DNA from: Eledone cirrhosa
Taxonomy: Eukaryota
Direction of reading: 5' to 3'
Assembly (NCBI GenBank): GCA_964016885.1
Contig: OZ024763.1
Span: 25,792,001 to 25,856,000 of the forward strand
DNA length: 64,000 bases
Shown here: one piece after another, positions 5,996 to 47,800 of the stretch
Position numbering within the stretch: the first letter of the stretch is position 1
Layout: the number at the start of each line of letters is the position of its first letter
Made by a program: the position numbers and the translations under genes
The notes under the pieces: model-generated
What the model saw: the letters and a program-made list of their open reading frames with translations, nothing else
Database searches by the model: none
Told to the model about the DNA's origin: nothing

Positions 5996-5998
<3 letters not shown>

Positions 5999-6735
5999 GT
6001 ACTCTATATAATATATATACAGTGCCTAGTCGTGTTATCTTTTGTATGTTGTATATATTTGTAAGTCCTGAGGTACTCTATATAATATATATACAGTGCC
6101 TAGTAGTGCTATCTTTTGTATGCTGTATATATTTGTAAGTCCTGTGGTACTCTATATAATATATATACAGTGCCTAGTAGTGCTATCTTTTGTATGCTGT
6201 ATATATTTGTAAGACCTGTGGTACTCTATATAATATATATACAGTGCCTAGTAGTGCTATCTTTTGTATGCTGTATATATTTGTAAGTCCTGCGGTACTC
6301 TATATAATATATATACAGTGCCTAGTAGTGCTATCTTTTGTATGCTGTATATATTTGTAAGTCCTGCAGTACTCTATATAATATATATACAGTGCCTAGT
6401 AGTGCTATCTTTTGTATGCTGTATATATTTGTAAGTCCTGTGGTACTCTATATAATATATATACAGTGCCTAGTAGTGCTATCTTTTGTATGCTGTATAT
6501 ATTTGTAAGACCTGTGGTACTCTATATAATATATATACAGTGCCTAGTAGTGCTATCTTTTGTATGCTGTATATATTTGTAAGTCCTGCGGTACTCTATA
6601 TAATATATATACAGTACCTAGTAGTGCTATCTTTTGTATGCTGTATATATTTGTAAGTCCTGCAGTACTCTATATAATATATATACAGTGCCTAGTAGTG
6701 CTATCTTTTGTATGCTGTATATATTTGTAAGCCCT
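5996..6735. repeat. 74-bp minisatellite (about 10 copies) amplified from the R4/Dong 3' coding end
   Basis: gtactc recurs at 5999, 6073, 6147, ...; minus strand reads IQKIALLGT, contiguous with the RLE fragment. Confidence 0.85.
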
Positions 6736-7010
6736 GGGGTTTGGGTTATGTATTTCTCTGTGTGGTTTTTGTATCATTCCCAGAGCACCTATTATTATAG
6801 GTATTGTTTCAATTTTCATTGTCCACATTTGAGTTATTTCTATCTCTAGATCTTTATATTTGGAGAGTTTCTCTCTTTCCTTGGAAGATATACTGTCGTC
6901 TGTGGGGATTAATACATCTATTAGAAAAAATTTTTCTTCTTTGTGGTCTTTGACTATAATATCTGGTAGGTTGACCTTGATCTCTCTGTCTGTATGCATT
7001 GGCATATCCC
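6670..7010 (-). mobile_element. R4/Dong-type non-LTR retrotransposon fragment (restriction-like endonuclease)
   Basis: PDIIVKD...LIDVLIPTD...KEREKLSKYKDLEIEITQMW...PIIIGALG; adjacent to a TAA-type microsatellite. Confidence 0.8.
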
Positions 7011-7350: not shown

Positions 7351-7519
7351 TTTCGTCCTCATGGGGTCTTTAAAATAAAGCACCAGTAATGCACTGGGGT
7401 CGATTTAATCAACTTTCCCCTCTTCCCCCAAAATTGCTGACCTTGTGCCTATAGTAGAAATCATTATTATTATTGTTGTTACCATTTTTCTTCAAAAAAC
7501 CATTTTTTTCTCTTTCCAG

Positions 7520-7676
7520 AAACCAGCCAGAAGTAATGGAGCAGTTGTTGATGAAAGGGGCTAACATTAATGCCTTTAATAAGGGTGGCTGTAGTACACT
7601 TCATGTAGCCGTCAACAAACAGTTTGTGAAATGTGTTCGGGTATTAATAAAGTATTCGACCCCAGTTAACATTCAG
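7520..7676 (+). CDS. MIB2: MIB2 exon (ankyrin repeats)
   Basis: ttccag acceptor, CAG|gtgagt donor; NQPEVMEQLLMKGANINAFNKGGCSTLHVAVNKQFVKCVRVLIKYSTPVNIQ. Confidence 0.9.
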
Positions 7677-8937
7677 GTGAGTCACTAACAATAACAACAA
7701 GAACAACAGCAGCAGTAGCATACCACCACCTCCACCATCAACTACAGGTAACAAGAATGATCCCTCATAACCCCCTCTACAACACCCACATAAAAAAAAA
7801 AAACATCATTAACTCACTTGGCACTGACCTGGCCAAAACCGGTTCTGGTTCTATGAAACCATATCAAAAGGTTCTTACTTAAACCCATTTTAAAGGGTTC
7901 CTACTGTGGTTTTATAGGTTTTTTTCCACAAGTAGCCCTTGGATGTCTCCTCACTATTGAGGAACACATGAAAACACACACTCCAACACGCACACTCCAA
8001 CACGCACACATTAACGTATACACACTAACACAAACACACTCAATGTTTTGTCTTGTGCCGTCCTTAATGTTTATCTTGATTTGAACTCTTAGGGGTTAAT
8101 AAAGACATTATTATTATTATTAATTGTCAGTATCGGTAGAGTGTCAGACACCATGTTTTGTAGCATAGTTATGGCCCTTTAGATTCTGAGTTCAAATCCT
8201 GCCTAGATTAGCTTTGCCTTTCATCCTTACAGAGTAACAAAATAAAGTACCAGTCACACACTAGGGTCAATTTAATTGACTTTTGCCTCTGCCAAAATTG
8301 TTGGCCTTGTGCCTAAAGTAGTAACAATTATTGATATTATTATCTTCAAGTTTCACCTGGAAAAGGTGAGTGGGGAGAGAGAAGTGCTGCCCCCCCCCCC
8401 CCCAGTACACATGCTAAAAGGTGGATGAATGTAGCGAGAATGGCCCGTGTGAATGGACCTACTCTGACCATGAGCCTATAGGCTAGCTAACTTGAGGAGA
8501 GGGGTACTCTCCCTGAGTGCCCTAGAAGCGCAGGATGGTTCAGGATTGGTGGGGTACCTGAGTCACCCCTGGGTCGTCCACCCCCTATCGGGGAATTTAT
8601 TTTGTTATATAGTTTATTTTATATTTTTACATCTTCATTGTTAAATTAGTCTTGCCATTGTGCACTTTTACTCGATCTTATTGTAACCCACCCCCACCCC
8701 TCCACTCCCACTGTCTGTGTCTTTGTACTGTCTCCTAAATGTCGGCCCTTGTGGCCAATAAATGAAATCATTATTATTATTATTAATTCTGAGTTCAAAT
8801 CCCGCCGAGGTTAACTTTGCCTTTCATCCTTACGGGGTCAATAAAATAAAGTACCAGTAATACACTGGGTAATTGCTGGCCTTGTGCCTAACGTAGAAAC
8901 AATTATTAATATTATATTTATTATTTACCCCACCTAG

Positions 8938-15599: not shown

Positions 15600-15904
15600 T
15601 TCTTACATAATAAGGTTACGTTCTCGAGGCAATCCAAATTAAAACGATAAGGGAACAGACAAAGACAATGCCCTTGAAGCCTTTGTGTATTTAGCAAAAT
15701 ATAACTGAATCATTATCAATCATATATATGAAATTAGGAGAATAATATTACATTAGGTATGACTCAAAGTTATAGCTGCCATATAGAAGGTACTAATCGA
15801 GTTGTTTGAGGCAATCACAAAGCACTCAGTATATACATATATATATATGTATATGCATATATATATATGTATATATATATGTGTATGTATATATGTATAT
15901 ATAT

Positions 15905-18900
15905 ATAAAAACAAATAACAAAACGAAATTAAATTTCGTTTCGTTTGTAACTCACTTTTGTATGACTGACGCTTAAACAATTAAGTTAAAAATGTACATC
16001 TACATATGCATACTGAAATACTAGTGTGTATATGAATACACACACGTATACATATGTAGGTGTAACAAGTCTTTCACTGGTTGCTTTACTGTGAGCAACC
16101 CAGCTATTTTGTATGTAAACACACAGACAAACCGGTTTTTAGAGTCATACTGGTTTTCGGGGGAACACCTTCCCTCTATTCTCCAGAAAGCCAGACAAGG
16201 AATATTGAACTAGTTTCGTTGTTGTTACAACTCATCAGCAATATTTACCTATCTACCGGCCCCTCTGGAGAATTGTAAAAGCACATATCGTTATATGCTT
16301 TTTCTATGAAAATTAGTAGTGGGCAGACTAATTTGCATAGAGTGTGAGTACGCACCGGTTCAGCGGAGACGATAAAAACAAATAACAAAACGAAATTAAA
16401 TTTCGTTTCGTTTGTAACTCACTTTTGTATGACTGACGCTTAAACAATTAAGTTAAAAATGTACATCTACATATGCATACTGAAATACTAGTGTGTATAT
16501 GAATACACACACGTATACATATGTAGGTGTAACAAGTCTTTCACTGGTTGCTTTACTGTGAGCAACCCAGCTATTTTGTATGTAAACACACAGACAAACC
16601 GGTTTTTAGAGTCATACTGGTTTTCGGGGGAACACCTTCCCTCTATTCTCCAGAAAGCCAGACAAGGAATATTGAACTAGTTTCGTTGTTGTTACAACTC
16701 ATCAGCAATATTTACCTATCTACCGGCCCCTCTGGAGAATTGTAAAAGCACATATCGTTATATGCTTTTTCTATGAAAATTAGTAGTGGGCAGACTAATT
16801 TGCATAGAGTGTGAGTACGCACCGGTTCAGCGGAGACGATAAAAACAAATAACAAAACGAAATTAAATTTCGTTTCGTTTGTAACTCACTTTTGTATGAC
16901 TGACGCTTAAACAATTAAGTTAAAAATGTACATCTACATATGCATACTGAAATACTAGTGTGTATATGAATACACACACGTATACATATGTAGGTGTAAC
17001 AAGTCTTTCACTGGTTGCTTTACTGTGAGCAACCCAGCTATTTTGTATGTAAACACACAGACAAACCGGTTTTTAGAGTCATACTGGTTTTCGGGGGAAC
17101 ACCTTCCCTCTATTCTCCAGAAAGCCAGACAAGGAATATTGAACTAGTTTCGTTGTTGTTACAACTCATCAGCAATATTTACCTATCTACCGGCCCCTCT
17201 GGAGAATTGTAAAAGCACATATCGTTATATGCTTTTTCTATGAAAATTAGTAGTGGGCAGACTAATTTGCATAGAGTGTGAGTACGCACCGGTTCAGCGG
17301 AGACGATAAAAACAAATAACAAAACGAAATTAAATTTCGTTTCGTTTGTAACTCACTTTTGTATGACTGACGCTTAAACAATTAAGTTAAAAATGTACAT
17401 CTACATATGCATACTGAAATACTAGTGTGTATATGAATACACACACGTATACATATGTAGGTGTAACAAGTCTTTCACTGGTTGCTTTACTGTGAGCAAC
17501 CCAGCTATTTTGTATGTAAACACACAGACAAACCGGTTTTTAGAGTCATACTGGTTTTCGGGGGAACACCTTCCCTCTATTCTCCAGAAAGCCAGACAAG
17601 GAATATTGAACTAGTTTCGTTGTTGTTACAACTCATCAGCAATATTTACCTATCTACCGGCCCCTCTGGAGAATTGTAAAAGCACATATCGTTATATGCT
17701 TTTTCTATGAAAATTAGTAGTGGGCAGACTAATTTGCATAGAGTGTGAGTACGCACCGGTTCAGCGGAGACGATAAAAACAAATAACAAAACGAAATTAA
17801 ATTTCGTTTCGTTTGTAACTCACTTTTGTATGACTGACGCTTAAACAATTAAGTTAAAAATGTACATCTACATATGCATACTGAAATACTAGTGTGTATA
17901 TGAATACACACACGTATACATATGTAGGTGTAACAAGTCTTTCACTGGTTGCTTTATTGAATATTGAACTAGTTTCGTTGTTGTTACAACTCATCAGCAA
18001 TATTTACCTATCTACCGGCCCCTCTGGAGAATTGTAAAAGCACATATCGTTATATGCTTTTTCTATGAAAATTAGTAGTGGGCAGACTAATTTGCATAGA
18101 GTGTGAGTACGCACCGGTTCAGCGGAGACGATAAAAACAAATAACAAAACGAAATTAAATTTCGTTTCGTTTGTAACTCACTTTTGTATGACTGACGCTT
18201 AAACAATTAAGTTAAAAATGTACATCTACATATGCATACTGAAATACTAGTGTGTATATGAATACACACACGTATACATATGTAGGTGTAACAAGTCTTT
18301 CACTGGTTGCTTTACTGTGAGCAACCCAGCTATTTTGTATGTAAACACACAGACAAACCGGTTTTTAGAGTCATACTGGTTTTCGGGGGAACACCTTCCC
18401 TCTATTCTCCAGAAAGCCAGACAAGGAATATTGAACTAGTTTCGTTGTTGTTACAACTCATCAGCAATATTTACCTATCTACCGGCCCCTCTGGAGAATT
18501 GTAAAAGCACATATCGTTATATGCTTTTTCTATGAAAATTAGTAGTGGGCAGACTAATTTGCATAGAGTGTGAGTACGCACCGGTTCAGCGGAGACGATA
18601 AAAACAAATAACAAAACGAAATTAAATTTCGTTTCGTTTGTAACTCACTTTTGTATGACTGACGCTTAAACAATTAAGTTAAAAATGTACATCTACATAT
18701 GCATACTGAAATACTAGTGTGTATATGAATACACACACGTATACATATGTAGGTGTAACAAGTCTTTCACTGGTTGCTTTACTGTGAGCAACCCAGCTAT
18801 TTTGTATGTAAACACACAGACAAACCGGTTTTTAGAGTCATACTGGTTTTCGGGGGAACACCTTCCCTCTATTCTCCAGAAAGCCAGACAAGGAATATTG

Positions 18901-21745
18901 AACTAGTTTCGTTGTTGTTACAACTCATCAGCAATATTTACCTATCTACCGGCCCCTCTGGAGAATTGTAAAAGCACATATCGTTATATGCTTTTTCTAT
19001 GAAAATTAGTAGTGGGCAGACTAATTTGCATAGAGTGTGAGTACGCACCGGTTCAGCGGAGACGATAAAAACAAATAACAAAACGAAATTAAATTTCGTT
19101 TCGTTTGTAACTCACTTTTGTATGACTGACGCTTAAACAATTAAGTTAAAAATGTACATCTACATATGCATACTGAAATACTAGTGTGTATATGAATACA
19201 CACACGTATACATATGTAGGTGTAACAAGTCTTTCACTGGTTGCTTTACTGTGAGCAACCCAGCTATTTTGTATGTAAACACACAGACAAACCGGTTTTT
19301 AGAGTCATACTGGTTTTCGGGGGAACACCTTCCCTCTATTCTCCAGAAAGCCAGACAAGGAATATTGAACTAGTTTCGTTGTTGTTACAACTCATCAGCA
19401 ATATTTACCTATCTACCGGCCCCTCTGGAGAATTGTAAAAGCACATATCGTTATATGCTTTTTCTATGAAAATTAGTAGTGGGCAGACTAATTTGCATAG
19501 AGTGTGAGTACGCACCGGTTCAGCGGAGACGATAAAAACAAATAACAAAACGAAATTAAATTTCGTTTCGTTTGTAACTCACTTTTGTATGACTGACGCT
19601 TAAACAATTAAGTTAAAAATGTACATCTACATATGCATACTGAAATACTAGTGTGTATATGAATACACACACGTATACATATGTAGGTGTAACAAGTCTT
19701 TCACTGGTTGCTTTACTGTGAGCAACCCAGCTATTTTGTATGTAAACACACAGACAAACCGGTTTTTAGAGTCATACTGGTTTTCGGGGGAACACCTTCC
19801 CTCTATTCTCCAGAAAGCCAGACAAGGAATATTGAACTAGTTTCGTTGTTGTTACAACTCATCAGCAATATTTACCTATCTACCGGCCCCTCTGGAGAAT
19901 TGTAAAAGCACATATCGTTATATGCTTTTTCTATGAAAATTAGTAGTGGGCAGACTAATTTGCATAGAGTGTGAGTACGCACCGGTTCAGCGGAGACGAT
20001 AAAAACAAATAACAAAACGAAATTAAATTTCGTTTCGTTTGTAACTCACTTTTGTATGACTGACGCTTAAACAATTAAGTTAAAAATGTACATCTACATA
20101 TGCATACTGAAATACTAGTGTGTATATGAATACACACACGTATACATATGTAGGTGTAACAAGTCTTTCACTGGTTGCTTTACTGTGAGCAACCCAGCTA
20201 TTTTGTATGTAAACACACAGACAAACCGGGTTGCTCACAGTAAAGCAACCAGTGAAAGACTTGTTACACCTACATATGTATACGTGTGTGTATTCATATA
20301 CACACTAGTATTTCAGTATGCATATGTAGATGTACATTTTTAACTTAATTGTTTAAGCGTCAGTCATACAAAAGTGAGTTACAAACGAAACGAAATTTAA
20401 TTTCGTTTTGTTATTTGTTTTTATCGTCTCCGCTGAACCGGTGCGTACTCACACTCTATGCAAATTAGTCTGCCCACTACTAATTTTCATAGAAAAAGCA
20501 TATAACGATATGTGCTTTTACAATTCTCCAGAGGGGCCGGTAGATAGGTAAATATTGCTGATGAGTTGTAACAACAACGAAACTAGTTCAATATTCCTTG
20601 TCTGGCTTTCTGGAGAATAGAGGGAAGGTGTTCCCCCGAAAACCAGTATGACTCTAAAAACCGGTTTGTCTGTGTGTTTACATACAAAATAGCTGGGTTG
20701 CTCACAGTAAAGCAACCAGTGAAAGACTTGTTACACCTACATATGTATACGTGTGTGTATTCATATACACACTAGTATTTCAGTATGCATATGTAGATGT
20801 ACATTTTTAACTTAATTGTTTAAGCGTCAGTCATACAAAAGTGAGTTACAAACGAAACGAAATTTAATTTCGTTTTGTTATTTGTTTTTATCGTCTCCGC
20901 TGAACCGGTGCGTACTCACACTCTATGCAAATTAGTCTGCCCACTACTAATTTTCATAGAAAAAGCATATAACGATATGTGCTTTTACAATTCTCCAGAG
21001 GGGCCGGTAGATAGGTAAATATTGCTGATGAGTTGTAACAACAACGAAACTAGTTCAATATTCCTTGTCTGGCTTTCTGGAGAATAGAGGGAAGGTGTTC
21101 CCCCGAAAACCAGTATGACTCTAAAAACCGGTTTGTCTGTGTGTTTACATACAAAATAGCTGGGTTGCTCACAGTAAAGCAACCAGTGAAAGACTTGTTA
21201 CACCTACATATGTATACGTGTGTGTATTCATATACACACTAGTATTTCAGTATGCATATGTAGATGTACATTTTTAACTTAATTGTTTAAGCGTCAGTCA
21301 TACAAAAGTGAGTTACAAACGAAACGAAATTTAATTTCGTTTTGTTATTTGTTTTTATCGTCTCCGCTGAACCGGTGCGTACTCACACTCTATGCAAATT
21401 AGTCTGCCCACTACTAATTTTCATAGAAAAAGCATATAACGATATGTGCTTTTACAATTCTCCAGAGGGGCCGGTAGATAGGTAAATATTGCTGATGAGT
21501 TGTAACAACAACGAAACTAGTTCAATATTCCTTGTCTGGCTTTCTGGAGAATAGAGGGAAGGTGTTCCCCCGAAAACCAGTATGACTCTAAAAACCGGTT
21601 TGTCTGTGTGTTTACATACAAAATAGCTGGGTTGCTCACAGTAAAGCAACCAGTGAAAGACTTGTTACACCTACATATGTATACGTGTGTGTATTCATAT
21701 ACACACTAGTATTTCAGTATGCATATGTAGATGTACATTTTTAAC

Positions 21746-21751
<6 letters not shown>
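15905..21751. mobile_element. Retrozyme-like array 1: 467-bp hammerhead-bearing monomer, about 9.5 copies (ribozyme on -) then about 3.3 inverted copies (ribozyme on +), flanked by (TA)n
   Basis: Unit starts at 15905, 16372, 16839, 17306, 17773, 18131, 18598, 19065, 19532, 19999; inversion at about 20228; 12 hammerhead cores. Confidence 0.9.
20524..20617 (+). ncRNA. Hammerhead ribozyme of array 1 (representative; + cores at 20558, 21025, 21492; nine - strand cores from 16232 to 19859)
   Basis: aatattg CUGAUGA gttgt-aaca-acaac GAAA ctag UU caatatt; stem I extends to ttctccaga/tctggagaa; palindromic stem III CTAG. Confidence 0.92.
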
Positions 21752-21789
<38 letters not shown>

Positions 21790-21793
<4 letters not shown>

Positions 21794-22363
21794 CCCAGTA
21801 CAACCTGTCTCATGGTCGGGTCGTTGGCGACTAAACTGGCAACCCCACCAAGGTTTCTTGGTGAGGAGGGTGACTTTGGACATAATGCAGGACTAAAAAC
21901 GAAACCTGTCAAAGGGCAAAGGAGCTCTTAAGAGTCAATGGCCATCCAAAATCACCGGGAGAGATGACCCCTTAGCCTTTGTCAAGGCAGAATTCTAGGA
22001 GAAGGAAAACTCTGATATAACACCTGCAACTCTGATGGTATCCAATGATGTTGACTTGTTCTTCTTTTTGGTAAATATCATCTTGGTTAAGAGAGGGGGA
22101 CTGGCTTTGTGCAGTGCCTTTGCTCACTATAAAAGCTTCACGGCACAGGCATTGCTTTATATCTGGAGATCTCTCTGCACTTGTCGTCACAGGGTACCAT
22201 GGGCCCAGCACTATGTGTCAATAATTGTCACAAGTGTAGTGTTTGTACCAGAGTTTTCAAGTCGCTGGCTGGACTAAAAAGTCACACTCGTTCAGCGCAT
22301 CAGTAGGGGTTCTCCTACATGGATATAAAGTAGTGGCCATACTCGAAAACGAGTTGGCAGCCA

Positions 22364-22365
<2 letters not shown>
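21790..22365 (-). repeat. Interspersed repeat of uncertain class (related diverged copy at about 28013-28500, +)
   Basis: Shared start ggctgcc...tcgtt-tcgagtat-gccat and shared internal blocks; flanked by (TA)n. Confidence 0.5.
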
Positions 22366-22414
<49 letters not shown>

Positions 22415-22492
22415 TCTCGGGAATTTTACCCACTATAGATAGATATATATGATGTAGGACAGAACAACGGAGAAACACAAAATAAAACCCTA

Positions 22493-22535
22493 GTCACTGA
22501 GGAGGTCGCAGAATGTGTGACGAAAGAGCTTTGAC
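22493..22535 (+). ncRNA. Degenerate minimal hammerhead
   Basis: gtca CUGAGGA g gtcgca-gaatg-tgtgac GAAA gagc UU tgac, inside a ~250-bp TA-flanked insert. Confidence 0.5.
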
Positions 22536-22843
22536 AATATATAAACAACCTTCTGGTTATCGAACCAACCAACCAACCGGAAATTTATGATAAATTGAAG
22601 TGAAAACCAACAAGTGAGTGTGTTTTTATTGGTAACATGACCTTCCCAAAGTATAACAATATGTATATATATATATATATATATGTATATGTGTGGTAAG
22701 GGTGGGTGAGAGTATGTGTGTATTTTTCTCTCTCTCTGTGTGGCTATATTGATTCATTTTTTTTCTCTCTCTCTCTCTCTCACTTTCTGTCCTTGTCTCA
22801 TTTTATTTTTTCCACATATCATTCCTTTTTCTTTCTTCCAAAG

Positions 22844-23040
22844 AAGGAGTCATAAAGCTGCAGGCCAAATTGAGGGTCCCAGAAACCATATCAATGACTG
22901 TGTGGTGTGCTCTGATAAACCAGCCAATGTGAAATTCCAGCCTTGCGGCCATGTTGTTACCTGTGAAGACTGCAGCCTAAAAATTACAATTAAAAAATGT
23001 ATCCAGTGTAAAGTGCCTGTAATTAGTAAAATTGGAGTTG
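22844..23040 (+). CDS. MIB2: MIB2 exon encoding first RING finger
   Basis: Polypyrimidine tract, AAG/AAG tandem acceptor, G|gtaggt donor; CVVCSDKPANVKFQPCGHVVTCEDCSLKITIKKCIQCKVPV (C3HC4); phases 2 and 1 fit neighbouring exons. Confidence 0.9.
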
Positions 23041-23477
23041 GTAGGTAGAAGGTTCTATATCTGTCTGTCTATATAGCTATCTATCTATCTATCTATTTTT
23101 CTATCTGTCTCTCTGTCTAGCTGTCTGTCTGTCTGTTTAGCTGTTTGTCTATCTCTCTGTCTGTCTGTGTGTCTATTCATGTGTCTGTCTGTCTATGTAT
23201 CTATCTCTGTGTCTATCTGTATCCAGTGGAATCTCCCTGTAATTAGTAAAATTGAAGTTGGTAGGTAGAGGTTCTATATCTGTCTGTCTGTCTGCCTGCC
23301 TGTCTGTCTGTCTGCCTAGCTGTCTATATGTCTTTATGTCTGTGTGTCTATCTATCTGTCTGTCTGTTCGGCTTCGTACATTATATATATCTGTGTGTGT
23401 ATATACATATATATATATACAACTTTAAATAGGTTTAAACATTTGGAAGTCTGACAATGCGTGCAAGATCAAAGGTG

Positions 23478-23532
<55 letters not shown>

Positions 23533-23836
23533 AAACTGGGACGGGAACAAAAACAGAGAGGCAGTACAAAGGTTTATTAGGCTCACGCTCTTATATATAT
23601 ATTAAAAAAACACACAGTCCACGATGTAATGTGGCCGTGTAGGTAACAGTAAAAACCTCCCAGTCCACACTGTAAACGTGGTTGGTGTTAGGAAGGGCAT
23701 CCAGCCGTAGAAAACCCGCCAGACAGTCCTATACGAGCAAGACAACCAATCTTGCCTCAAGTGGGAAAATTCCCGTCCAAACCCATGCTAGCGTGGAAGA
23801 TGGACGTTAAACGATGAGATATATATATATATATAT

Positions 23837-26800
23837 ATTGGAATAAATGCTCTGAAATAGCGATATATATGTGAATATAGACATAGAATATTCGAAAATA
23901 TTCTGTATGTTTATAATAAACATTTTGAAGACCTAATCGCTATAGAATAGAATACGTCACGTATTACAATTAGATTCTCGATAAAAGCAAGGGAAGTAAT
24001 CTACGCGTTTCATTCTTGTTAGAAATCATCAGGACCACATATCCAGTGCTTTTATCGAGAATGACACAGCTAGAGACTTATAGAATACTTAGCTGTGTAC
24101 AGGAACTGGTTTGAAAGAGCGGTTGCCGGTCCGGCAGAAATTAGAAATTGGAATAAATGCTCTGAAATAGCGATATATATGTGAATATAGACATAGAATA
24201 TTCGAAAATATTCTGTATGTTTATAATAAACATTTTGAAGACCTAATCGCTATAGAATAGAATACGTCACGTATTACAATTAGATTCTCGATAAAAGCAA
24301 GGGAAGTAATCTACGCGTTTCATTCTTGTTAGAAATCATCAGGACCACATATCCAGTGCTTTTATCGAGAATGACACAGCTAGAGACTTATAGAATACTT
24401 AGCTGTGTACAGGAACTGGTTTGAAAGAGCGGTTGCCGGTCCGGCAGAAATTAGAAATTGGAATAAATGCTCTGAAATAGCGATATATATGTGAATATAG
24501 ACATAGAATATTCGAAAATATTCTGTATGTTTATAATAAACATTTTGAAGACCTAATCGCTATAGAATAGAATACGTCACGTATTACAATTAGATTCTCG
24601 ATAAAAGCAAGGGAAGTAATCTACGCGTTTCATTCTTGTTAGAAATCATCAGGACCACATATCCAGTGCTTTTATCGAGAATGACACAGCTAGAGACTTA
24701 TAGAATACTTAGCTGTGTACAGGAACTGGTTTGAAAGAGCGGTTGCCGGTCCGGCAGAAATTAGAAATTGGAATAAATGCTCTGAAATAGCGATATATAT
24801 GTGAATATAGACATAGAATATTCGAAAATATTCTGTATGTTTATAATAAACATTTTGAAGACCTAATCGCTATAGAATAGAATACGTCACGTATTACAAT
24901 TAGATTCTCGATAAAAGCAAGGGAAGTAATCTACGCGTTTCATTCTTGTTAGAAATCATCAGTCCTGATGATTTCTAACAAGAATGAAACGCGTAGATTA
25001 CTTCCCTTGCTTTTATCGAGAATCTAATTGTAATACGTGACGTATTCTATTCTATAGCGATTAGGTCTTCAAAATGTTTATTATAAACATACAGAATATT
25101 TTCGAATATTCTATGTCTATATTCACATATATATCGCTATTTCAGAGCATTTATTCCAATTTCTAATTTCTGCCGGACCGGCAACCGCTCTTTCAAACCA
25201 GTTCCTGTACACAGCTAAGTATTCTATAAGTCTCTAGCTGTGTCATTCTCGATAAAAGCACTGGATATGTGGTCCTGATGATTTCTAACAAGAATGAAAC
25301 GCGTAGATTACTTCCCTTGCTTTTATCGAGAATCTAATTGTAATACGTGACGTATTCTATTCTATAGCGATTAGGTCTTCAAAATGTTTATTATAAACAT
25401 ACAGAATATTTTCGAATATTCTATGTCTATATTCACATATATATCGCTATTTCAGAGCATTTATTCCAATTTCTAATTTCTGCCGGACCGGCAACCGCTC
25501 TTTCAAACCAGTTCCTGTACACAGCTAAGTATTCTATAAGTCTCTAGCTGTGTCATTCTCGATAAAAGCACTGGATATGTGGTCCTGATGATTTCTAACA
25601 AGAATGAAACGCGTAGATTACTTCCCTTGCTTTTATCGAGAATCTAATTGTAATACGTGACGTATTCTATTCTATAGCGATTAGGTCTTCAAAATGTTTA
25701 TTATAAACATACAGAATATTTTCGAATATTCTATGTCTATATTCACATATATATCGCTATTTCAGAGCATTTATTCCAATTTCTAATTTCTGCCGGACCG
25801 GCAACCGCTCTTTCAAACCAGTTCCTGTACACAGCTAAGTATTCTATAAGTCTCTAGCTGTGTCATTCTCGATAAAAGCACTGGATATGTGGTCCTGATG
25901 ATTTCTAACAAGAATGAAACGCGTAGATTACTTCCCTTGCTTTTATCGAGAATCTAATTGTAATACGTGACGTATTCTATTCTATAGCGATTAGGTCTTC
26001 AAAATGTTTATTATAAACATACAGAATATTTTCGAATATTCTATGTCTATATTCACATATATATCGCTATTTCAGAGCATTTATTCCAATTTCTAATTTC
26101 TGCCGGACCGGCAACCGCTCTTTCAAACCAGTTCCTGTACACAGCTAAGTATTCTATAAGTCTCTAGCTGTGTCATTCTCGATAAAAGCACTGGATATGT
26201 GGTCCTGATGATTTCTAACAAGAATGAAACGCGTAGATTACTTCCCTTGCTTTTATCGAGAATCTAATTGTAATACGTGACGTATTCTATTCTATAGCGA
26301 TTAGGTCTTCAAAATGTTTATTATAAACATACAGAATATTTTCGAATATTCTATGTCTATATTCACATATATATCGCTATTTCAGACCATTTATTCCAAT
26401 TTCTAATTTCTGCCGGACCGGCAACCGCTCTTTCAAACCAGTTCCTGTACACAGCTAAGTATTCTATAAGTCTCTAGCTGTGTCATTCTCGATAAAAGCA
26501 CTGGATATGTGGTCCTGATGATTTCTAACAAGAATGAAACGCGTAGATTACTTCCCTTGCTTTTATCGAGAATCTAATTGTAATACGTGACGTATTCTAT
26601 TCTATAGCGATTAGGTCTTCAAAATGTTTATTATAAACATACAGAATATTTTCGAATATTCTATGTCTATATTCACATATATATCGCTATTTCAGAGCAT
26701 TTATTCCAATTTCTAATTTCTGCCGGACCGGCAACCACTCTTTCAAACCAGTTCCTGTACACAGCTAAGTATTCTATAAGTCTCTAGCTGTGTCATTCTC

Positions 26801-27601
26801 GATAAAAGCACTGGATATGTGGTCCTGATGATTTCTAACAAGAATGAAACGCGTAGATTACTTCCCTTGCTTTTATCGAGAATCTAATTGTAATACGTGA
26901 CGTATTCTATTCTATAGCGATTAGGTCTTCAAAATGTTTATTATAAACATACAGAATATTTTCGAATATTCTATGTCTATATTCACATATATATCGCTAT
27001 TTCAGAGCATTTATTCCAATTTCTAATTTCTGCCGGACCGGCAACCGCTCTTTCAAACCAGTTCCTGTACACAGCTAAGTATTCTATAAGTCTCTAGCTG
27101 TGTCATTCTCGATAAAAGCACTGGATATGTGGTCCTGATGATTTCTAACAAGAATGAAACGCGTAGATTACTTCCCTTGCTTTTATCGAGAATCTAATTG
27201 TAATACGTGACGTATTCTATTCTATAGCGATTAGGTCTTCAAAATGTTTATTATAAACATACAGAATATTTTCGAATATTCTATGTCTATATTCACATAT
27301 ATATCGCTATTTCAGAGCATTTATTCCAATTTCTAATTTCTGCCGGACCGGCAACCGCTCTTTCAAACCAGTTCCTGTACACAGCTAAGTATTCTATAAG
27401 TCTCTAGCTGTGTCATTCTCGATAAAAGCACTGGATATGTGGTCCTGATGATTTCTAACAAGAATGAAACGCGTAGATTACTTCCCTTGCTTTTATCGAG
27501 AATCTAATTGTAATACGTGACGTATTCTATTCTATAGCGATTAGGTCTTCAAAATGTTTATTATAAACATACAGAATATTTTCGAATATTCTATGTCTAT
27601 A

Positions 27602-27605
<4 letters not shown>
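23837..27605. mobile_element. Retrozyme-like array 2: 310-bp hammerhead-bearing monomer, about 3.6 copies (ribozyme on -) then about 8.5 inverted copies (ribozyme on +), flanked by (TA)n
   Basis: 310-bp period (ggtcctgatg at 25271, 25581, ..., 27441); inversion at 24962-24965; only two substitutions noticed (26387, 26737). Confidence 0.9.
25245..25333 (+). ncRNA. Hammerhead ribozyme of array 2 (representative)
   Basis: tggtc CUGAUGA t-ttct-aaca-agaa-t GAAA cgcg UA gatta; distal stem I attctcgataaaagca/tgcttttatcgagaat is a perfect 16-bp pairing; palindromic stem III CGCG. Confidence 0.85.
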
Positions 27606-27673
<68 letters not shown>

Positions 27674-29410: not shown

Positions 29411-29586
29411 ATATATATATATATATATATAACTACATGGCTAAATACAATAAATGTAGTCTGAGTTTTTCGAATATTAATAATAACATTCGATTCGTTT
29501 GCAATTATGCAAACAAGCCTCAATTTTATAGCCATGTCAGTAGAATGAACACTTCATTCTTGCTCTTGTTTGGCATGCGAACAGAA

Positions 29587-29630
29587 CTGCAGACACTAAC
29601 GTTTCTGAGTATCACCCTTCATCAGTGCAG
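29587..29630 (-). ncRNA. Minimal hammerhead in the loop of a ~100-bp inverted repeat (29461-29563 / 29656-29755)
   Basis: Minus strand: ctgca CUGAUGA a-ggg-tgata-ctc-a GAAA cgttagtg UC tgcag. Confidence 0.65.
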
Positions 29631-29966
29631 CCAAACTGTCAGAGCTAGTCAAAATGCAAGAATGAAGTGTTCATTCTACTGACATGGCTATAAAATTGAG
29701 GCTTGTTTGCATAATTGCAAACAAATCGAATGTTATTAATATTCGAAAAACTCAGCTTATATTTATTATACATATATAAAGGGCGGTGGATTAGCAGTAT
29801 CGGTAGAGGGTCGGACGCCATGCTTTGACGTATGGAGTTACGGCCCTTGCCATTCTGAGTTCAAATCCCGCCGAGGTTAACTTTGCCTTTCATCCTTACG
29901 GGGTTGATAAAATAAAGTACCAGTAATGCACTGAGTACTTGCTGGCCTTGTGCCAATAGTAGAAAC

Positions 29967-38892: not shown

Positions 38893-41800
38893 CCACCACC
38901 ACCAACACTACCATCACCACTACTATCACCTCTATCACTACCAACACTACCACCACCACCACCAACACTACCATCACCACTACTATCACCTCTATCACTA
39001 CCAACACTACCACCACCAACAACACTACCATCAACACTACTATCACCTCTATCACTACCAACACTACCACCACCACCAACACTACCATCACCACTACTAT
39101 CACCTCTATCACTACCAACACTACCACCACCACCACCAACACTACCACCACCACCAACAACACTACCACCACCACTACTATCACCTCTATCACTACCAAC
39201 ACTACCACCACCACCACCAACACTACCATCACCACTACTATCACCTCTATCACTACCAACACTACCATCACCACTACTATCACCTCTATCACTACCAACA
39301 CTACCACCACCACCAACAACACTACCAACACCACTACTATCACCTCTATCACTACCAACACTACCACCACCACCAACACTACCACCACCACTACTATCAC
39401 CTCTATCACTACCAACACTACCACCACCACCAACAACACTACCACCACCACTACTATCACCTCTATCACTACCAACACTACCACCACCACCACCAACACT
39501 ACCACCACCACTACTATCACCTCTATCACTACCACCACCACTACTATCACCTCTATCACTACCAACACTACCACCACCACCACCAACACTACCATCACCA
39601 CTACTATCACCTCTATCACTACCAACACTACCACCACCACCACCAACACTACCACCAACAACACTACCACCACCACTACTATCACCTCTATCACTACCAA
39701 CACTACCACCACCACCAACACTACCATCACCACTACTATCACCTCTATCACTACCAACACTACCACCACCACCACCAACAACACTACCATCACCACTACT
39801 ATCACCTCTATCACTACCAACACTACCACCACCACCAACACTACCACCACCACTACTATCACCTCTATCACTACCAACACTACCACCACCACCAACACTA
39901 CCATCACCACTACTATCACCTCTATCACTACCAACACTACCACCACCACCACCAACACTACCACCACCACTACTATCACCTCTATCACTACCAACACTAC
40001 CACCACCACCAACACTACCATCACCACTACTATCACCTCTATCACTACCAACACCACCACCACCACCAACACTACCACCACCACTACTATCACCTCTATC
40101 ACTACCAACACTACCACCACCACCAACAACACTACCACCACCACCAACAACACTACCACCACCACTACTATCACCTCTATCACTACCAACACCACCACCA
40201 CCACCAACACTACCACCACCACTACTATCACCTCTATCACTACCAACACTACCACCACCACCACCAACACTACCACCACCACTACTATCACCTCTATCAC
40301 TACCAACACTACCACCACCACCACCAACACTACCATCACCACTACTATCACCTCTATCACTACCAACACTACCACCACCACCAACAACACTACCATCACC
40401 ACTACTATCACCTCTATCACTACCAACACTACCACCACCACCAACACTACCACCACCACTACTATCACCTCTATCACTACCAACACTACCACCACCACCA
40501 ACACTACCATCACCACTACTATCACCTCTATCACTACCAACACTACCACCACCACCACCAACACTACCACCACCACTACTATCACCTCTATCACTACCAA
40601 CACTACCACCACCACCAACACTACCACCACCACTACTATCACCTCTATCACTACCAACACTACCACCACCAACAACACTACCATCACCACTACTATCACC
40701 TCTATCACTACCAACACTACCACCACCACCAACACTACCACCACCACTACTATCACCTCTATCACTACCAACACTACCACCACCACCAACACTACCATCA
40801 CCACTACTATCACCTCTATCACTACCAACACTACCACCACCACCAACACTACTATCACCTCTATCACTACCAACACTACCAACACCACCAACAACACTAC
40901 CACCACCACTACTATCACCTCTATCACTACCAACACTACCACCACCAACAACACTACCATCACCACTACTATCGCCTCTATCACTACCAACACCACCACC
41001 ACCACCAACACTACCACCACCACTACTATCACCTCTATCACTACCAACACTACCACCACCACCAACAACACTACCACCACCACCACCAACACTACCACCA
41101 CCACTACTATCACCTCTATCCCTACCAACACTACCACCACCACCAACAACACTACCACCACCACTACTATCACCTCTATCACTACCAACACTACCACCAC
41201 CACCAACACTACCATCACCACTACTATCACCTCTATCACTACCAACACTACCACCACCACCACCAACACTACCATCACCACTACTATCACCTCTATCACT
41301 ACCAACACTACCACCACCACCAACACTACCACCACCACTACTATCACCTCTATCACTACCAACACTACCACCACCAACAACAACACTACCAACACCACTA
41401 CTATCACCTCTATCACTACCAACACTACCACCACCACCAACACTACCACCACCACTACTATCACCTCTATCACTACCAACACTACCACCACCACCAACAC
41501 TACCACCACCACTACTATCACCTCTATCACTACCAACACTACCACCACCACCAACACTACCAACACCACTACTAACACCTCTATCACTACCAACACTACC
41601 ACCACCACCAACACTACCACCACCACTACTATCACCTCTATCACTACCAACACTACCACCACCACCAACAACACTACCACCACCACTACTATCACCTCTA
41701 TCACTACCAACACTACCACCACCACCACCAACACTACCACCACCACTACTATCACCTCTATCACTACAACCACCACTACTATCACCTCTATCACTACCAA

Positions 41801-44800
41801 CACTACCACCACCACCACCAACACTACCATCACCACTACTATCACCTCTATCACTACCAACACTACCACCACCACCACCAACACTACCACCACCACCAAC
41901 AACACTACCACCACCACTACTATCACCTCTATCACTACCAACACTACCACCACCACCAACAACACTACCATCACCACTACTATCACCTCTATCACTACCA
42001 ACACCACCACCACCACCAACACTACCACCACCACTACTATCACCTCTATCACTACCAACACTACCACCAACAACACTACCACCACCACTACTATCACCTC
42101 TATCACTACCAACACTACCACCACCACCACCAACACTACCACCACCACTACTATCACCTCTATCACTACCACCACCACTACTATCACCTCTATCACTACC
42201 AACACTACCACCACCACCACCAACACTACCATCACCACTACTATCACCTCTATCACTACCAACACTACCACCACCACCACCAACACTACCACCACCACTA
42301 CTATCACCTCTATCACTACCAACACTACCACCACCACCAACAACACTACCATCACCACTACTATCACCTCTATCACTACCAACACCACCACCACCACCAA
42401 CACTACCATCACCACTACTATCACCTCTATCACTACCAAGACTACCACCACCACCAACAACACTACCATCACCACTACTATCACCTCTATCACTACCAAC
42501 ACTACCACCACCACCAACACTACCACCACCACTACTATCACCTCTATCACTACCAACACTACCACCACCACCAACACTACCATCACCACTACTATCACCT
42601 CTATCACTACCAACACTACCACCACCACCACCAACACTACCACCACCACTACTATCACCTCTATCACTACCAACACTACCACCACCACCAACACTACCAC
42701 CACCACTACTATCACCTCTATCACTACCAACACTACCACCACCAACAACACTACCACCACCACTACTATCACCTCTATCACTACCAACACTACCACCACC
42801 ACCAACACTACCACCACCACTACTATCACCTCTATCACTACCAACACTACCACCACCACCAACACTACCATCACCACTACTATCACCTCTATCACTACCA
42901 ACACTACCACCACCACCAACACTACTATCACCTCTATCACTACCAACACTACCACCACCACCAACACTACCATCACCACTACTATCACCTCTATCACTAC
43001 CAACACTACCACCACCACCACCAACACTACCACCACCACTACTATCACCTCTATCACTACCAACACTACAACCACCACCAACAACACTACCACCACAACT
43101 ACTATCACCTCTATCACTACCAACACTACCACCACCACCAACAACACTACCACCACCACTACTATCACCTCTATCACTACCAACACTACCACCACCACCA
43201 ACACTACCACCACCACTACTATCACCTCTATCACTACCAACACTACCACCACCAACAACACTACCATCAACACTACTATCACCTCTATCACTACCAACAC
43301 TACCACCACCACCAACACTACCATCACCACTACTATCACCTCTATCACTACCAACACTACCACCACCACCAACACTACCATCACCACTACTATCACCTCT
43401 ATCACTACCAACACTACCACCACCACCACCAACACTACCACCACCACTACTATCACCTCTATCACTACCAACACTACCACCACCACCAACAACACTACCA
43501 CCACCACTACTATCACCTCTATCACTACCAACACTACCACCACCACCAACAACACTACCACCACCACTACTATCACCTCTATCACTACCAACACTACCAC
43601 CACTAACAACACTACCACCACCACTACTATCACCTCTATCACTACCAACACTACCACCACCAACAACAACACTACCATCAACACTACTATCACCTCTATC
43701 ACTACCAACACTACCACCACCACCAACAACACTACCACCACCACTACTATCACCTCTATCACTACCAACACTACCACCACCACCAACACTACCACCACCA
43801 CTACTATCACCTCTATCACTACCAACACTACCACCACCAACAACACTACCACCACCACTACTATCACCTCTATCACTACCAACACTACCACCACCACCAA
43901 CAACACTACCACCACCACTACTATCACCTCTATCACTACCAACACTCACCACCACCAACAACACTACCACCACCACTACTATCACCTCTATCACTACCAC
44001 ACCACCACCAACAACAACACTACCACCACCACTACTATCACCTCTATCACTACCAACACTACCACCACCAACAACACTACCACCACCACTACTATCACCT
44101 CTATCACTACCAACACTACCACCACCACCAACAACACTACCACCACCACTACTATCACCTCTATCACTACCAACACTACCACCACCACCAACAACACTAC
44201 CACCACCACTACTATCACCTCTATCACTACCAACACTACCACCACCACCAACAACACTACCACCACCACTACTATCACCTCTATCACTACCAACAATACC
44301 ACCACCAACAACAACACTACCACCACCACTACTATCACCTCTATCACTACCAACACTACCACCACCTACAACAACACTACCACCACCACTACTATCACCT
44401 CTATCACTACCAACACTACCACCACCAACAACAACACTACCACCACCACTACTATCACCTCTATCACTACCAACACTACCACCACCAACAACAACTACCA
44501 CCACCACTACTATCACCTCTATCACTACCAACACTACCACCACCACCAACAACACTACCACCACCACTACTATCACCTCTATCACTACCAACACTACCAC
44601 CACCACCAACAACACTACCACCACCACTACTATCACCTCTATCACTACCAACACTACTACCACCACCACCAACAACACTACCACCACCACTACTATCACC
44701 TCTATCACTACCAACACTACCACCACCACCAACAACACTACCACCACCACTACTATCACCTCTATCACTACCAACACTACCACCACCACCAACAACACTA

Positions 44801-47800
44801 CCATCACCACTACTATCACCTCTATCACTACCAACACTACCACCACCACCAACAACAACACTACCACCACCACTACTATCACCTCTATCACTACCAACAC
44901 TACCACCACCACCAACAACACTACCACCACCACTACTATCACCTCTATCACTACCAACACTACCACCACTAACAACACTACCACCACCACTACTATCACC
45001 TCTATCACTACCAACACTACCACCACCAACAACAATACTACCACCACCACTACTATCACCTCTATCATTACCAACACTACCACCACTAACAACACTACCA
45101 CCACCACTACTATCACCTCTATCACTACCACCACCAACAACAACACTACCACCACCACTACTATCACCTCTATCACTACCAACACTACCACCACTAACAA
45201 CACTACCACCACCACTACTATCACCTCTATCACTACCAACACTACCACCACCACCAACAACACTACCACCTCCACTACTATCACCTCTATCACTACCAAC
45301 ACTACCACCACCAACAACAACACTACCACCACCACTACTATCACCTCTATCACTACCAACACTACCACCACCACCAACAACACTACCATCACCACTACTA
45401 TCACCTCTATCACTACCACCACCACCAACAACACTACCACCACCACTACTATCACCTCTATCACTACCACCACCACCAACAACACTACCACCACCACTAC
45501 TATCACCTCTATCACTACCAACACTACCACCACCACCAACACTACCACCACCACTACTATCACCTCTATCACTACCAACACTACCACCACCACCAACACT
45601 ACCATCACCACTACTATCACCTCTATCACTACCAACACTACCACCACCACCACCAACACTACCACCACCACTACTATCACCTCTATCACTACCAACACTA
45701 CAACCACCACCAACAACACTACCACCACAACTACTATCACCTCTATCACTACCAACACTACCACCACCACCAACAACACTACCACCACCACTACTATCAC
45801 CTCTATCACTACCAACACTACCACCACCACCAACACTACCACCACCACTACTATCACCTCTATCACTACCAACACTACCACCACTAACAACACTACCACC
45901 ACCACTACTATCACCTCTATCACTACCAACACTACCACTACCAACAACAACACTACCACCACCACTACTATCACCTCTATCACTACCAACACTACCACCA
46001 CCAACAACACTACCATCACCACTACTATCACCTCTATCACTACCAACACTACCACCACCACCACCAACAACACTACCATCACCACTACTATCACCTCTAT
46101 CACTACCAACACTACCACCACCACCAACAACACTACCACCACCACTACTATCACCTCTATCACTACCAACACTACCACCACCACCAACAACACTACCACC
46201 ACCACTACTATCACCTCTATCACTACCAACACTACCACCACTAACAACACTACCACCACTAACAACACTACCACCACCACTACTATCACCTCTATCACTA
46301 CCAACACTACCACCACCAACAACAACACTACCACCACCACTACTATCACCTCTATCATTACCAACACTACCACCACTAACAACACTACCACCACCACTAC
46401 TATCACCTCTATCACTACCACCACCAACAACAACACTACCACCACCACTACTATCACCTCTATCACTACCAACACTACCACCACTAACAACACTACCACC
46501 ACCACTACTATCACCTCTATCACTACCAACACTACCACCACCACCAACAACACTACCACCTCCACTACTATCACCTCTATCACTACCAACACTACCACCA
46601 CCAACAACAACACTACCACCACCACTACTATCACCTCTATCACTACCAACACTACCACCACCACCAACAACACTACCATCACCACTACTATCACCTCTAT
46701 CACTACCACCACCACCAACAACACTACCACCACCACTACTATCACCTCTATCACTACCACCACCACCAACAACACTACCACCACCACTACTATCACCTCT
46801 ATCACTACCAACACTACCACCACCACCAACAACACTACCACCACCACTACTATCACCTCTATCACTACCAACACTACTACCACCACCACCAACAACACTA
46901 CCACCACCACTACTATCACCTCTATCACTACCAACACTACCACCACCACCAACAACACTACCATCACCACTACTATCACCTCTATCACTACCAACACTAC
47001 CACCACCACCACCAACACTACCACCACCACTACTATCACCTCTATCACTACCAACACTACCACCACCACCAACAACACTACCACCACCACTACTATCACC
47101 TCTATCACTACCAACACTACCACCACCACCAACAACACTACCACCACCACTACTATCACCTCTATCACTACCAACACTACCACCACCACCAACACTACCA
47201 TCATCACTACTATCACCTCTATCACTACCAACACTACCACCACCACCAACAACACTACCACCACCACTACTATCACCTCTATCACTACCAACACTACCAT
47301 CACCACTACTATCACCTCTATCACTACCAACACTACTACCACCACCACCACCAACACTACCATTACCACTACTATCACCTCTATCACTACCAACACTACC
47401 ACCACCACCAACAACACTACCATCACCACTACTATCACCTCTATCACTACCAACACTACCACCACTACCAACAACACTACCACCACCACTACTATCACCT
47501 CTATCACTACCAACACTACCACCACCACTACTATCACCTCTATCACTACCAACACTACCACCACCACCAACAACACTACCACCACCACTACTATGACCTC
47601 TATCACTACCAACACTACCACCACCACCAACAACACTACCACCACCACTACTATCACCTCTATCACTACCAACACTACCACCACCACCACCAACACTACC
47701 ACCACCACTACTATCACCTCTATCACTACCAACACTACCACCACCCACCAACACTACCATCACCACTACTATCACCTCTATCACTACCAACACTACCACC

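Follow-up and report, generated by a model that had tools for sequence, protein, structure and literature searches.

The 64,000-nucleotide stretch of the Eledone cirrhosa genome analyzed here (contig OZ024763.1; hereafter the window) contains two arrays, A and B, of short tandem units, each unit carrying a hammerhead ribozyme. Array A consists of 467-bp monomers and array B of 310-bp monomers, and in both the orientation of the units switches once, from a minus-strand arm to a plus-strand arm. These arrays are young insertions of two retrozyme families without long terminal repeats (LTRs), and they carry the insertion anatomy of Penelope-like elements (PLEs), i.e., an inverted head-to-head copy, a tail at one end, a target duplication, and an AT-rich target. 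The features of the locus are given below; phase 1 of a monomer is the first base 3' of the predicted hammerhead cut, and the long and short ends are the two classes of outer ends found in each family.

15830-15904: interrupted (TA)n tract, left target flank of insertion A.
15905-20229, minus strand: left arm of insertion A, 9.25 units with 9 hammerheads; the outer end, at phase 303, is the long end of the family.
17957-17958, minus strand: internal jump in the left arm of A, with 109 bp lost and 2 bases gained; it begins 8 nt past a predicted cleavage site.
20228-20229: inversion junction of A, with a 2-nt microhomology (overlap) between phases 73 and 107.
20228-21751, plus strand: right arm of insertion A, 3.26 units with 3 hammerheads; the outer end, at phase 229, is the short end of the family.
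20551-20595, plus strand: one A hammerhead, type I, with the predicted cut after 20588 and the triplet GUU.
21752-21793: (TA)n, right target flank of insertion A.
22833-23045, plus strand: host reading frame with a C3HC4 RING finger (PF13920, E=2.4e-12).
23819-23836: (TA)n, left target flank of insertion B.
23837-24962, minus strand: left arm of insertion B, 3.63 units with 3 complete hammerheads; the outer end, at phase 165, is a long end.
24962: inversion junction of B, with a 1-nt microhomology (overlap) between phases 280 and 277.
24962-27605, plus strand: right arm of insertion B, about 8.5 units with 8 complete hammerheads, of the G276 minority lineage.
25269-25311, plus strand: one B hammerhead, type I, with the predicted cut after 25305 and the triplet GUA.
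27606-27671: (TA)n, right target flank of insertion B.

The type I hammerhead motif occurs once per full unit, and (TA)n borders the arrays on all four sides. The minus arm of A is split by the 109-bp deletion, which carries the 2-nt insert, into stretches of 4.39 and 4.86 units; there are no substitutions in the whole of array A and two in the plus arm of B. The right outer end of B, at phase 130, blends into (AT)n up to phase 139 and is a short end. Inside each arm the units run head to tail, with no LTR, and the GC content is 37% in A and 35% in B. The hammerhead is the sole sequence common to the two monomers (73% over 62 nt). Judged from their size and sequence, both monomers appear to be non-coding, and their predicted circular folds are stable (z = -8.7 and -4.4). 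Coordinates and motifs agree with an earlier sequence-only reading of the window, which had described near-identical arrays of two non-coding monomers with one hammerhead per unit. Its assignment of both to retrozymes is likewise upheld by the tandem units, the type I hammerhead in each of them, and the dispersal of the families with target duplications. A and B do not form one unit, however; they are two independent insertions on either side of the RING-finger exon, which is single-copy in the assembly and lies outside both. Their adjacency was considered as a sign of a single system and rejected, as about 4.5 such neighbors are expected by a rough uniform estimate. With the exon single-copy in the assembly, there is no second haplotype in which to look for an empty allele.

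The A hammerhead has a 7-bp helix I, a 5-bp helix II, and a palindromic 6-nt helix III. That of B has a 6-bp helix I including two G-U pairs, a helix II that starts with U-U followed by 4 bp, and again a palindromic 6-nt helix III. By the definitions of PMC4209133, both hammerheads are of the ordinary metazoan type I, helix III being short and palindromic, and not the "minimal" ones they had been taken for. Because helix III is a 6-nt palindrome in both, folding as a dimer is possible. An Rfam scan of the window yielded zero families at the gathering score; against Hammerhead_HH9, A reached E=1.5e-8 (38.6 bits, below the cut-off of 52) and B only E=0.079, also below the gathering score.

Both families are dispersed and multi-copy, and target duplications exceeding 4 bp point to retrotransposition. 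A 30-mer taken from the A hammerhead has 5,201 exact matches in the 3.0-Gb genome, and a 28-mer from the B hammerhead has 9,227, the latter comprising two alleles with 8,787 and 440 copies; the window carries the minority allele. Together, A and B occupy roughly 5 Mb. The 774 long ends of B on the forward strand suggest about 1,500 B insertions genome-wide. Family B is very young: over 53 kb of well-covered sites, its loci show 29 private substitutions. LTR retrozymes have a type III hammerhead in each of two LTRs and a 4-bp target duplication, whereas A and B have type I hammerheads, tandem units, and duplications of 12–14 bp. An autonomous PLE would contain an open reading frame (ORF) for a reverse transcriptase (RT) with a GIY-YIG endonuclease, and these insertions consist of two short monomers only.

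For comparison among loci, similarity searches with A and B were used, in which 40 of 608 and 40 of 130 candidates, respectively, were scored. From the places listed, 39 for A and 20 for B were fetched (six further listed B places were omitted), and L062 and L063 were removed as duplicates of L061. Including the window, the set comprises 38 A and 21 B insertions (59 in all), picked for likeness to the window monomers. The L061–L063 group (G000:C25) is a single A insertion present in triplicate via a larger duplication; one of the copies is one unit shorter, hence array length changed later.

The arm polarity is uniform. All 50 two-armed loci defined by BLAST (30 A, 20 B) have the minus arm followed by the plus arm, so that the RNA-sense 3' ends point outward. 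Two further lists, ordered by position, contain 23 fully listed arrays: 19 run from minus to plus, four have a single orientation, and none is reversed. The outer ends are two family-fixed sites, one of each per insertion. In A they lie at phase ~303 (long) or 229–235 (short), and in B at phase 159–172, mostly 165 (long), or 127–139 (short, blurred by an AT run); the distance between the two, i.e., the tail, is 26–74 nt across the two families. By BLAST ends, 45 of the 50 two-armed loci combine a long and a short end, one is long+long, none is short+short, and four have one aberrant end. Thus, 45 of 46 classifiable loci are long+short (p about 7e-13 under independent choice). A stricter exact-match script applied to 49 loci gave 41 long+short, one long+long, no short+short, and seven unclassified. 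An unselected check used all B ends beside (TA)n listed along C1:0-101.5 Mb (34 short, 52 long). There, all 28 facing pairs within 16 kb were long+short, while 30 ends had no facing partner under the exact patterns.

Of 49 loci, both flanks are informative (interrupted) in 14, and nine of these share at least 9 nt across the insertion, compared to 14 of 116 mismatched flank pairs used as a control. The nine comprise seven duplications of 12–14 nt and two periodic flanks. One locus with a duplication, L091, is situated outside any microsatellite. Such duplications suggest a staggered endonuclease cut, and together with the polarity they are what one would expect if a staggered cut left two 3' overhangs, each extended as cDNA. 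A DNA-level process, i.e., rolling replication of an extrachromosomal circle or satellite growth, with the product captured at (TA)n breaks, would yield uniform tandem arrays with end-joining marks at the junctions. However, it leaves unexplained the uniform polarity relative to the ribozyme strand, the one-of-each fixed ends, the 12–14-bp duplications, and the like anatomy of RT-coding PLEs (see below), and we regard it as highly improbable.

Nested insertions into (TA)n ends were also seen: among L096, L119, L099, and L160, A and B insertions directly follow the ends of PLE family F4, one A insertion is embedded in an A-like copy of greater age, and another, very small, adjoins an F5 PLE.

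The sequence-only reading had the polarity right, as well as priming at internal positions away from the cleavage site. Its four ends at different AT-rich positions do differ within the window, but they are the fixed sites of their families and not arbitrary ones. Similarly, the search of the genome with both monomers that it had advised found multi-locus families of uniform polarity, with fixed instead of arbitrary end points. Priming at an accidental (TA)n break gives way to a staggered endonuclease cut, to which the two fixed sites, one of each, and the duplications point. One long arm of about 9 units and one short arm of about 3.5 as a rule does not hold across loci either: the long-end arm is the longer one in 16 of 22 A and 8 of 19 B insertions, so either arm may be longer.

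Could the short end be secondary? According to the tail explanation in PMC8557442, both ends would be primed at a single site and the short one made later by a resolution cut of the endonuclease at a fixed position. This likewise predicts exactly one tail per insertion, and the slight heterogeneity of the short end (229–235 in A, 127–139 in B) agrees with it. On the other side, a PLE protein studied in vitro initiates reverse transcription at two internal RNA positions, one at either border of the tail (PMC11167929), and in A and B both end classes finish on AT or TA able to pair with the target, with the duplication abutting both ends. We consider a resolution cut improbable.

The inversion junctions were analyzed at 49 loci. 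Both window junctions are near-palindromic, with phase offsets of 34 nt (A) and -3 nt (B), and so are those of a few other loci; for the B family, such a junction is atypical. Over all 49 junctions the offset is uniform (Kolmogorov–Smirnov p=0.72; 13 lie within 40 nt compared to 10.3 expected), and the 5' ends of the arms are not enriched at the cleavage site (5/98, 5.3 expected). Microhomology of at least 2 nt is present in 19 of 35 insert-free junctions, while ~18% would be expected (p=1.5e-6). Inserts occur at 14 junctions, and seven of the ten inserts of at least 7 nt copy the monomer better than shuffled sequences do. Junction microhomology with templated inserts is the signature of polymerase theta end joining.

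The two window junctions had prompted fold-back as a general mechanism: a single primed cDNA would fold back and be copied into the inverted arm, as in the self-priming proposed in PMC3846280. The uniform offsets of the 49 junctions led us to reject it in that role. Moreover, a copied arm cannot exceed its template, yet either arm is the longer one in many loci; nothing would halt the copy at a second fixed phase; and variants shared by the two arms in L061, L066, and L113 are in register from the outer ends and not from the junction. Hence, for fold-back we see very little room. An assembly or library artifact, such as fold-back reads, has a negligible probability: no read spanning the window junctions was seen, but the flanks are not mirrored, the junctions vary in phase, several contain templated inserts, and target duplications flank the insertions. 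In addition, B ends at phases 139 and 170 that run on into (AT)n appear in contigs of public run X1, possibly the assembled sample itself.

What was the template? In 17 loci of each family, both arms are longer than one unit, and the longest arms have 12 units in A and 17 in B. All 275 joins across the cleavage site are free of indels, which disfavors jumping between cut linear monomers. Among private substitutions of A (WA, L066, and duplicates omitted), 97 are confined to single units, eight are partial, and nine are fixed in every covering unit; for B, the respective numbers are 23, 2, and 4. Shifted periods run through both arms of whole arrays: 468 in 20 units of one array and 308 in nine listed units of another. 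These variant patterns suggest passage through a one-unit circle for many insertions. Some templates, on the other hand, were multimers, with both primers often starting in one and the same unit, because at six of eight interpretable mixed loci the variant stands in the same unit of both arms when units are numbered from the outside (partially so at one of the others, and not at the remaining one).

This evidence bears on an explanation that retains the PLE machinery and the two primers but has no circle: the template is an uncleaved linear multimer, primed twice as in L1, and array length is kept by later unequal exchange. The six mixed loci need a template longer than one unit; L066, which alternates 467- and 480-bp units in one arm only, shows a sign of later expansion; and uncleaved RNA is the main substrate in vitro (PMC11167929). 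In contrast, slow homogenization should leave many partial variants, whereas young B has two; indels are fixed through up to 20 units of both arms; and the arms are as long as 12 and 17 units. We therefore judge a purely linear template to be unlikely, although it is the most serious of the alternatives. L066 was also considered as proof of a dimer circle and set aside: its 13-nt insert is in one arm only, other variants have a longer period, and later unequal exchange is equally likely.

A source of RT exists in the genome. A search for GIY-YIG domains gave 10,596 candidates, of which 150 were scored and 14 loci extended; several of the latter contain frames of 938 and 1,096 aa with RT and GIY-YIG domains and a CxxxxCxxC linker, a mark of the Neptune/Nematis type (PMC8557442). 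Inverted pairs of three coding PLE families at (TA)n combine a long with a short 3' end in all five cases inspected, with tails of 64, 48, and 37 nt. Judged by coordinates, two pairs of family F2 and one of the small hammerhead family C are also long+short; an inverted pair in L152 was not resolvable.

Two candidate partners were rejected. The likeness of F2 to the last 47 nt of B failed shuffling (21 of 300), and for family C, the helix II of which is like that of B, no ORF of its own was attributable in 20 loci. The 3' ends of coding families F1, F4, F6, and probably F2 have a hammerhead-like motif with a core starting U-U-G-A-N-A-A, i.e., with a U3-A8 pair replacing C3-G8; F4 also has GCAA for GAAA, and the core of F3 is the usual one. 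The sites with this motif, read by eye and not called by the motif scan, are L155:5895-5960, L162:4385-4450, L123 (3' untranslated region), and L152:6420-6465.

Taken together, these observations make it probable that A and B insert by double-ended target-primed reverse transcription, carried out in trans by a PLE protein, often on a monomer circle, and closed by end joining. In such a process, A and B would be non-coding retrozyme RNAs that borrow the RT and GIY-YIG protein of a PLE. Firstly, by analogy with other retrozymes, the arrays would be transcribed, and the hammerheads, probably as dimers, would free monomers that are then circularized. Secondly, the PLE complex would bind the RNA and cut both (TA)n strands about 12 nt apart, leaving two 3' overhangs; the duplication is seen at seven loci, and the enzyme is presumed. 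Thirdly, both 3' ends would prime reverse transcription internally, one at the downstream site (the long end) and the other 26–74 nt upstream (the short end); the one-of-each pattern is observed, and from it we infer an asymmetric complex. The number of laps made by each cDNA would vary, and the variant patterns suggest a monomer circle as the template of many insertions and multimeric RNA as that of some. Finally, the cDNA ends would be joined mid-array by host end joining, a pathway proposed from the observed junctions with 0–5 nt of microhomology or templated inserts. The outcome would be flank-(TA)n, antisense arm, sense arm, and (TA)n-flank. The same process would also account for the inverted copy and one-end tail of the autonomous PLEs in this genome. 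The two separately primed cDNAs joined by microhomology that the sequence-only reading had proposed are in line with the insert-free junctions, and its multi-lap copying of one unit with the fixed private variants and shifted periods. As for its RT supplied in trans, Penelope-like RT genes are present in the genome.

Several observations weigh against this mechanism. The partner element was not found among the 150 scored GIY-YIG candidates. Autonomous PLEs, for which the sequence-only reading had advised a search, are present with RT and GIY-YIG frames, but the last 110 nt of A and B have no convincing match among six PLE or PLE-like 3' ends, the best matches being equaled in 5 of 300 and 21 of 300 shuffles with eight comparisons each, and BLAST of both monomers against 44 GIY-YIG loci matched only separate small hammerhead elements beside PLEs. 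The GUU triplet of A and the U-U first pair of helix II in B, both unusual, may weaken cleavage; eight of nine frog retrozymes did not cleave in vitro (10.64898/2026.07.22.740005), and insertion in vitro did not require cleavage (PMC11167929). Several loci have mixed units, which are impossible from a monomer circle, and fixed variants could derive from unsampled uniform arrays. Nine of the 59 loci (8 A, 1 B) have a single arm by BLAST, three of them with a remnant of the other arm of up to 13 nt discernible by eye. At 11 of 49 loci a non-TA base within 10 nt is present on one side only; hence, duplication is not universal or was altered later. Finally, start sites did not differ between the two strands in vitro (PMC11167929), and therefore the coupling of the two start sites is known from genomes only.

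The component parts of this mechanism are known separately. Non-LTR retrozymes were defined in PMC7229834, where circles were demonstrated and PLEs named as candidate mobilizers; circle-templated tandem insertion was proposed there and in PMC4209133, which also describes opposite-strand hammerhead pairs 100–700 bp apart. A phylogeny ties retrozymes to the pseudo-LTRs (pLTRs) of PLEs, leaving the mechanism open (10.64898/2026.07.22.740005). The metazoan non-LTR retrozymes of these studies resemble A and B in having non-coding tandem units of 150–450+ bp, GC content below 50%, one type I hammerhead per unit, no LTR, and a stable predicted circular fold, and PLE dependence with circle-templated tandem cDNA has been proposed for them. 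They are described as plain head-to-tail tandems, whereas insertions of A and B nearly always consist of two arms of several units each, joined head to head, and use each of two fixed ends once. The main text of PMC7229834 nowhere uses the word "inverted", and the first three of the five parts of the 2026 preprint do not treat ends and inversions.

In vitro, the PLE protein PAc (Poseidon of Anolis; PMC11167929), a predicted dimer, cuts AT-rich DNA on both strands and extends both, and RNA–DNA homology beyond a base or two is not required. In that paper, as far as its cited sections go, the ends of one product are not paired with each other, ordinary second-strand synthesis comes last, and non-autonomous or circular templates are not treated. 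Endonuclease PLEs (Neptune, Penelope/Poseidon, Naiad; PMC8557442, PMC3846280) share with A and B a head-to-head inverted, 5'-truncated copy, a one-end tail, a target duplication of ~10 bp (8–10 bp in PMC3846280), the (TA)n preference (PMC8557442), and a hammerhead near the 3' end. Hence, the novelty of the bidirectional layout had been overstated in the sequence-only reading. In these papers, self-priming accounts for the inversion and resolution by the endonuclease for the tail, while the data on A and B favor two primers and two start sites. Unlike endonuclease PLEs, A and B have no coding sequence, many laps of one unit per arm, and tails of 26–74 nt. In twin priming of L1, both target nicks prime cDNA, which results in an inverted left part, junction microhomology, and a target duplication; the first primer relies on the poly(A) end, the internal site of the second varies, and twin priming affects a minority of insertions. 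In A and B, by contrast, the two priming sites are fixed internal positions, and a two-armed layout is normal. In the literature covered, which excluded subscription journals and repeat databases, we found no report of retrozyme insertions with two arms or of the one-of-each end rule.

Some observations concern B itself and its occurrence elsewhere. At window position 25271 (B phase 276), the lineage of the window has G, which forms a G-U pair in helix I, while 95% of genomic copies have A, forming a Watson–Crick pair; the listed arrays are uniform for one allele, barring single units. The G-to-A difference at this phase in runs X1, X5, and X9 was considered as editing or selection and dismissed, A being the majority genomic allele (8,787 vs. 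440). B was detected in 20 runs from 16 studies with 17 organism labels, and none of the runs listed was an RNA run. Horizontal spread was rejected as the reading of this, as carry-over from a genome with ~9,000 copies explains it equally. In X5 and X9, labeled as other organisms, B forms a single clean 340-nt cyclic contig at depths of 10 and 34 (aligned to window 24996-25305). These contigs are probably carry-over and call for caution in scans that call circular RNAs from such contigs. A raw run, X21, had 0 B reads in 1.9 Gb and does not count as a test.

More small hammerhead families occur at (TA)n: B2 (78% like B), A2, A3, and C, at L121:2430-2870, L160:7700-8340, L144:2700-3264, L162:4630-4836, and L159:6580-6720 and 7500-7700. 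In both A2 and A3 the hammerhead is A-like but has the triplet GUA. For A3 there are 1,551 candidate places, with a period of about 500 bp; for C there are 2,461 candidates. Head-to-head arms were seen in B2 and C. Window 25221-25300 (B phases 226–305) aligns at 74% over 80 nt with the palindromic center of a family C insertion; B may therefore contain a decayed antisense half-hammerhead and may itself stem from a head-to-head insertion.

Elsewhere in the window, a lone type I hammerhead-like motif outside the arrays is located at 29580-29632 on the minus strand, with a GUC triplet and a 7-bp helix I. Near-identical tandem arrays of 98 bp and 74 bp occupy 147-1452 and 5998-6740, the second beginning in a (TA)n tract; the hammerhead motif scan called none in either. 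A 13.9-kb ACC-rich tandem array with a period of ~57–60 bp extends over 38893-52794, followed by related arrays to 54812.

Both the mobility of animal retrozymes and the inverted copy and one-end tail of PLEs are left open in PMC7229834, PMC8557442, PMC11167929, and the 2026 preprint. The full Penelope insertion signature in non-coding families is anatomical evidence for mobilization in trans, and multimer arms with a readable phase allow fold-back to be tested against two primers, with two primers favored. Together with the coding PLE pairs, A and B connect the tail and inverted copy already described for Penelope with what in vitro work has reported, namely two start sites and extension of both strands. 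For the PLE system available in vitro, the rule of one long and one short end makes a sharp prediction. For PLEs as a whole, we give about even chances to an intrinsically double-ended integration, in which an asymmetric protein pair would cut both strands and start two cDNAs at two set positions of one RNA unit, and the middle would be end-joined instead of being completed by second-strand synthesis, with retrozyme circles serving as a rolling template for both enzymes at once. If this is true, retrozymes have recorded the double-ended PLE reaction in thousands of genomic copies.

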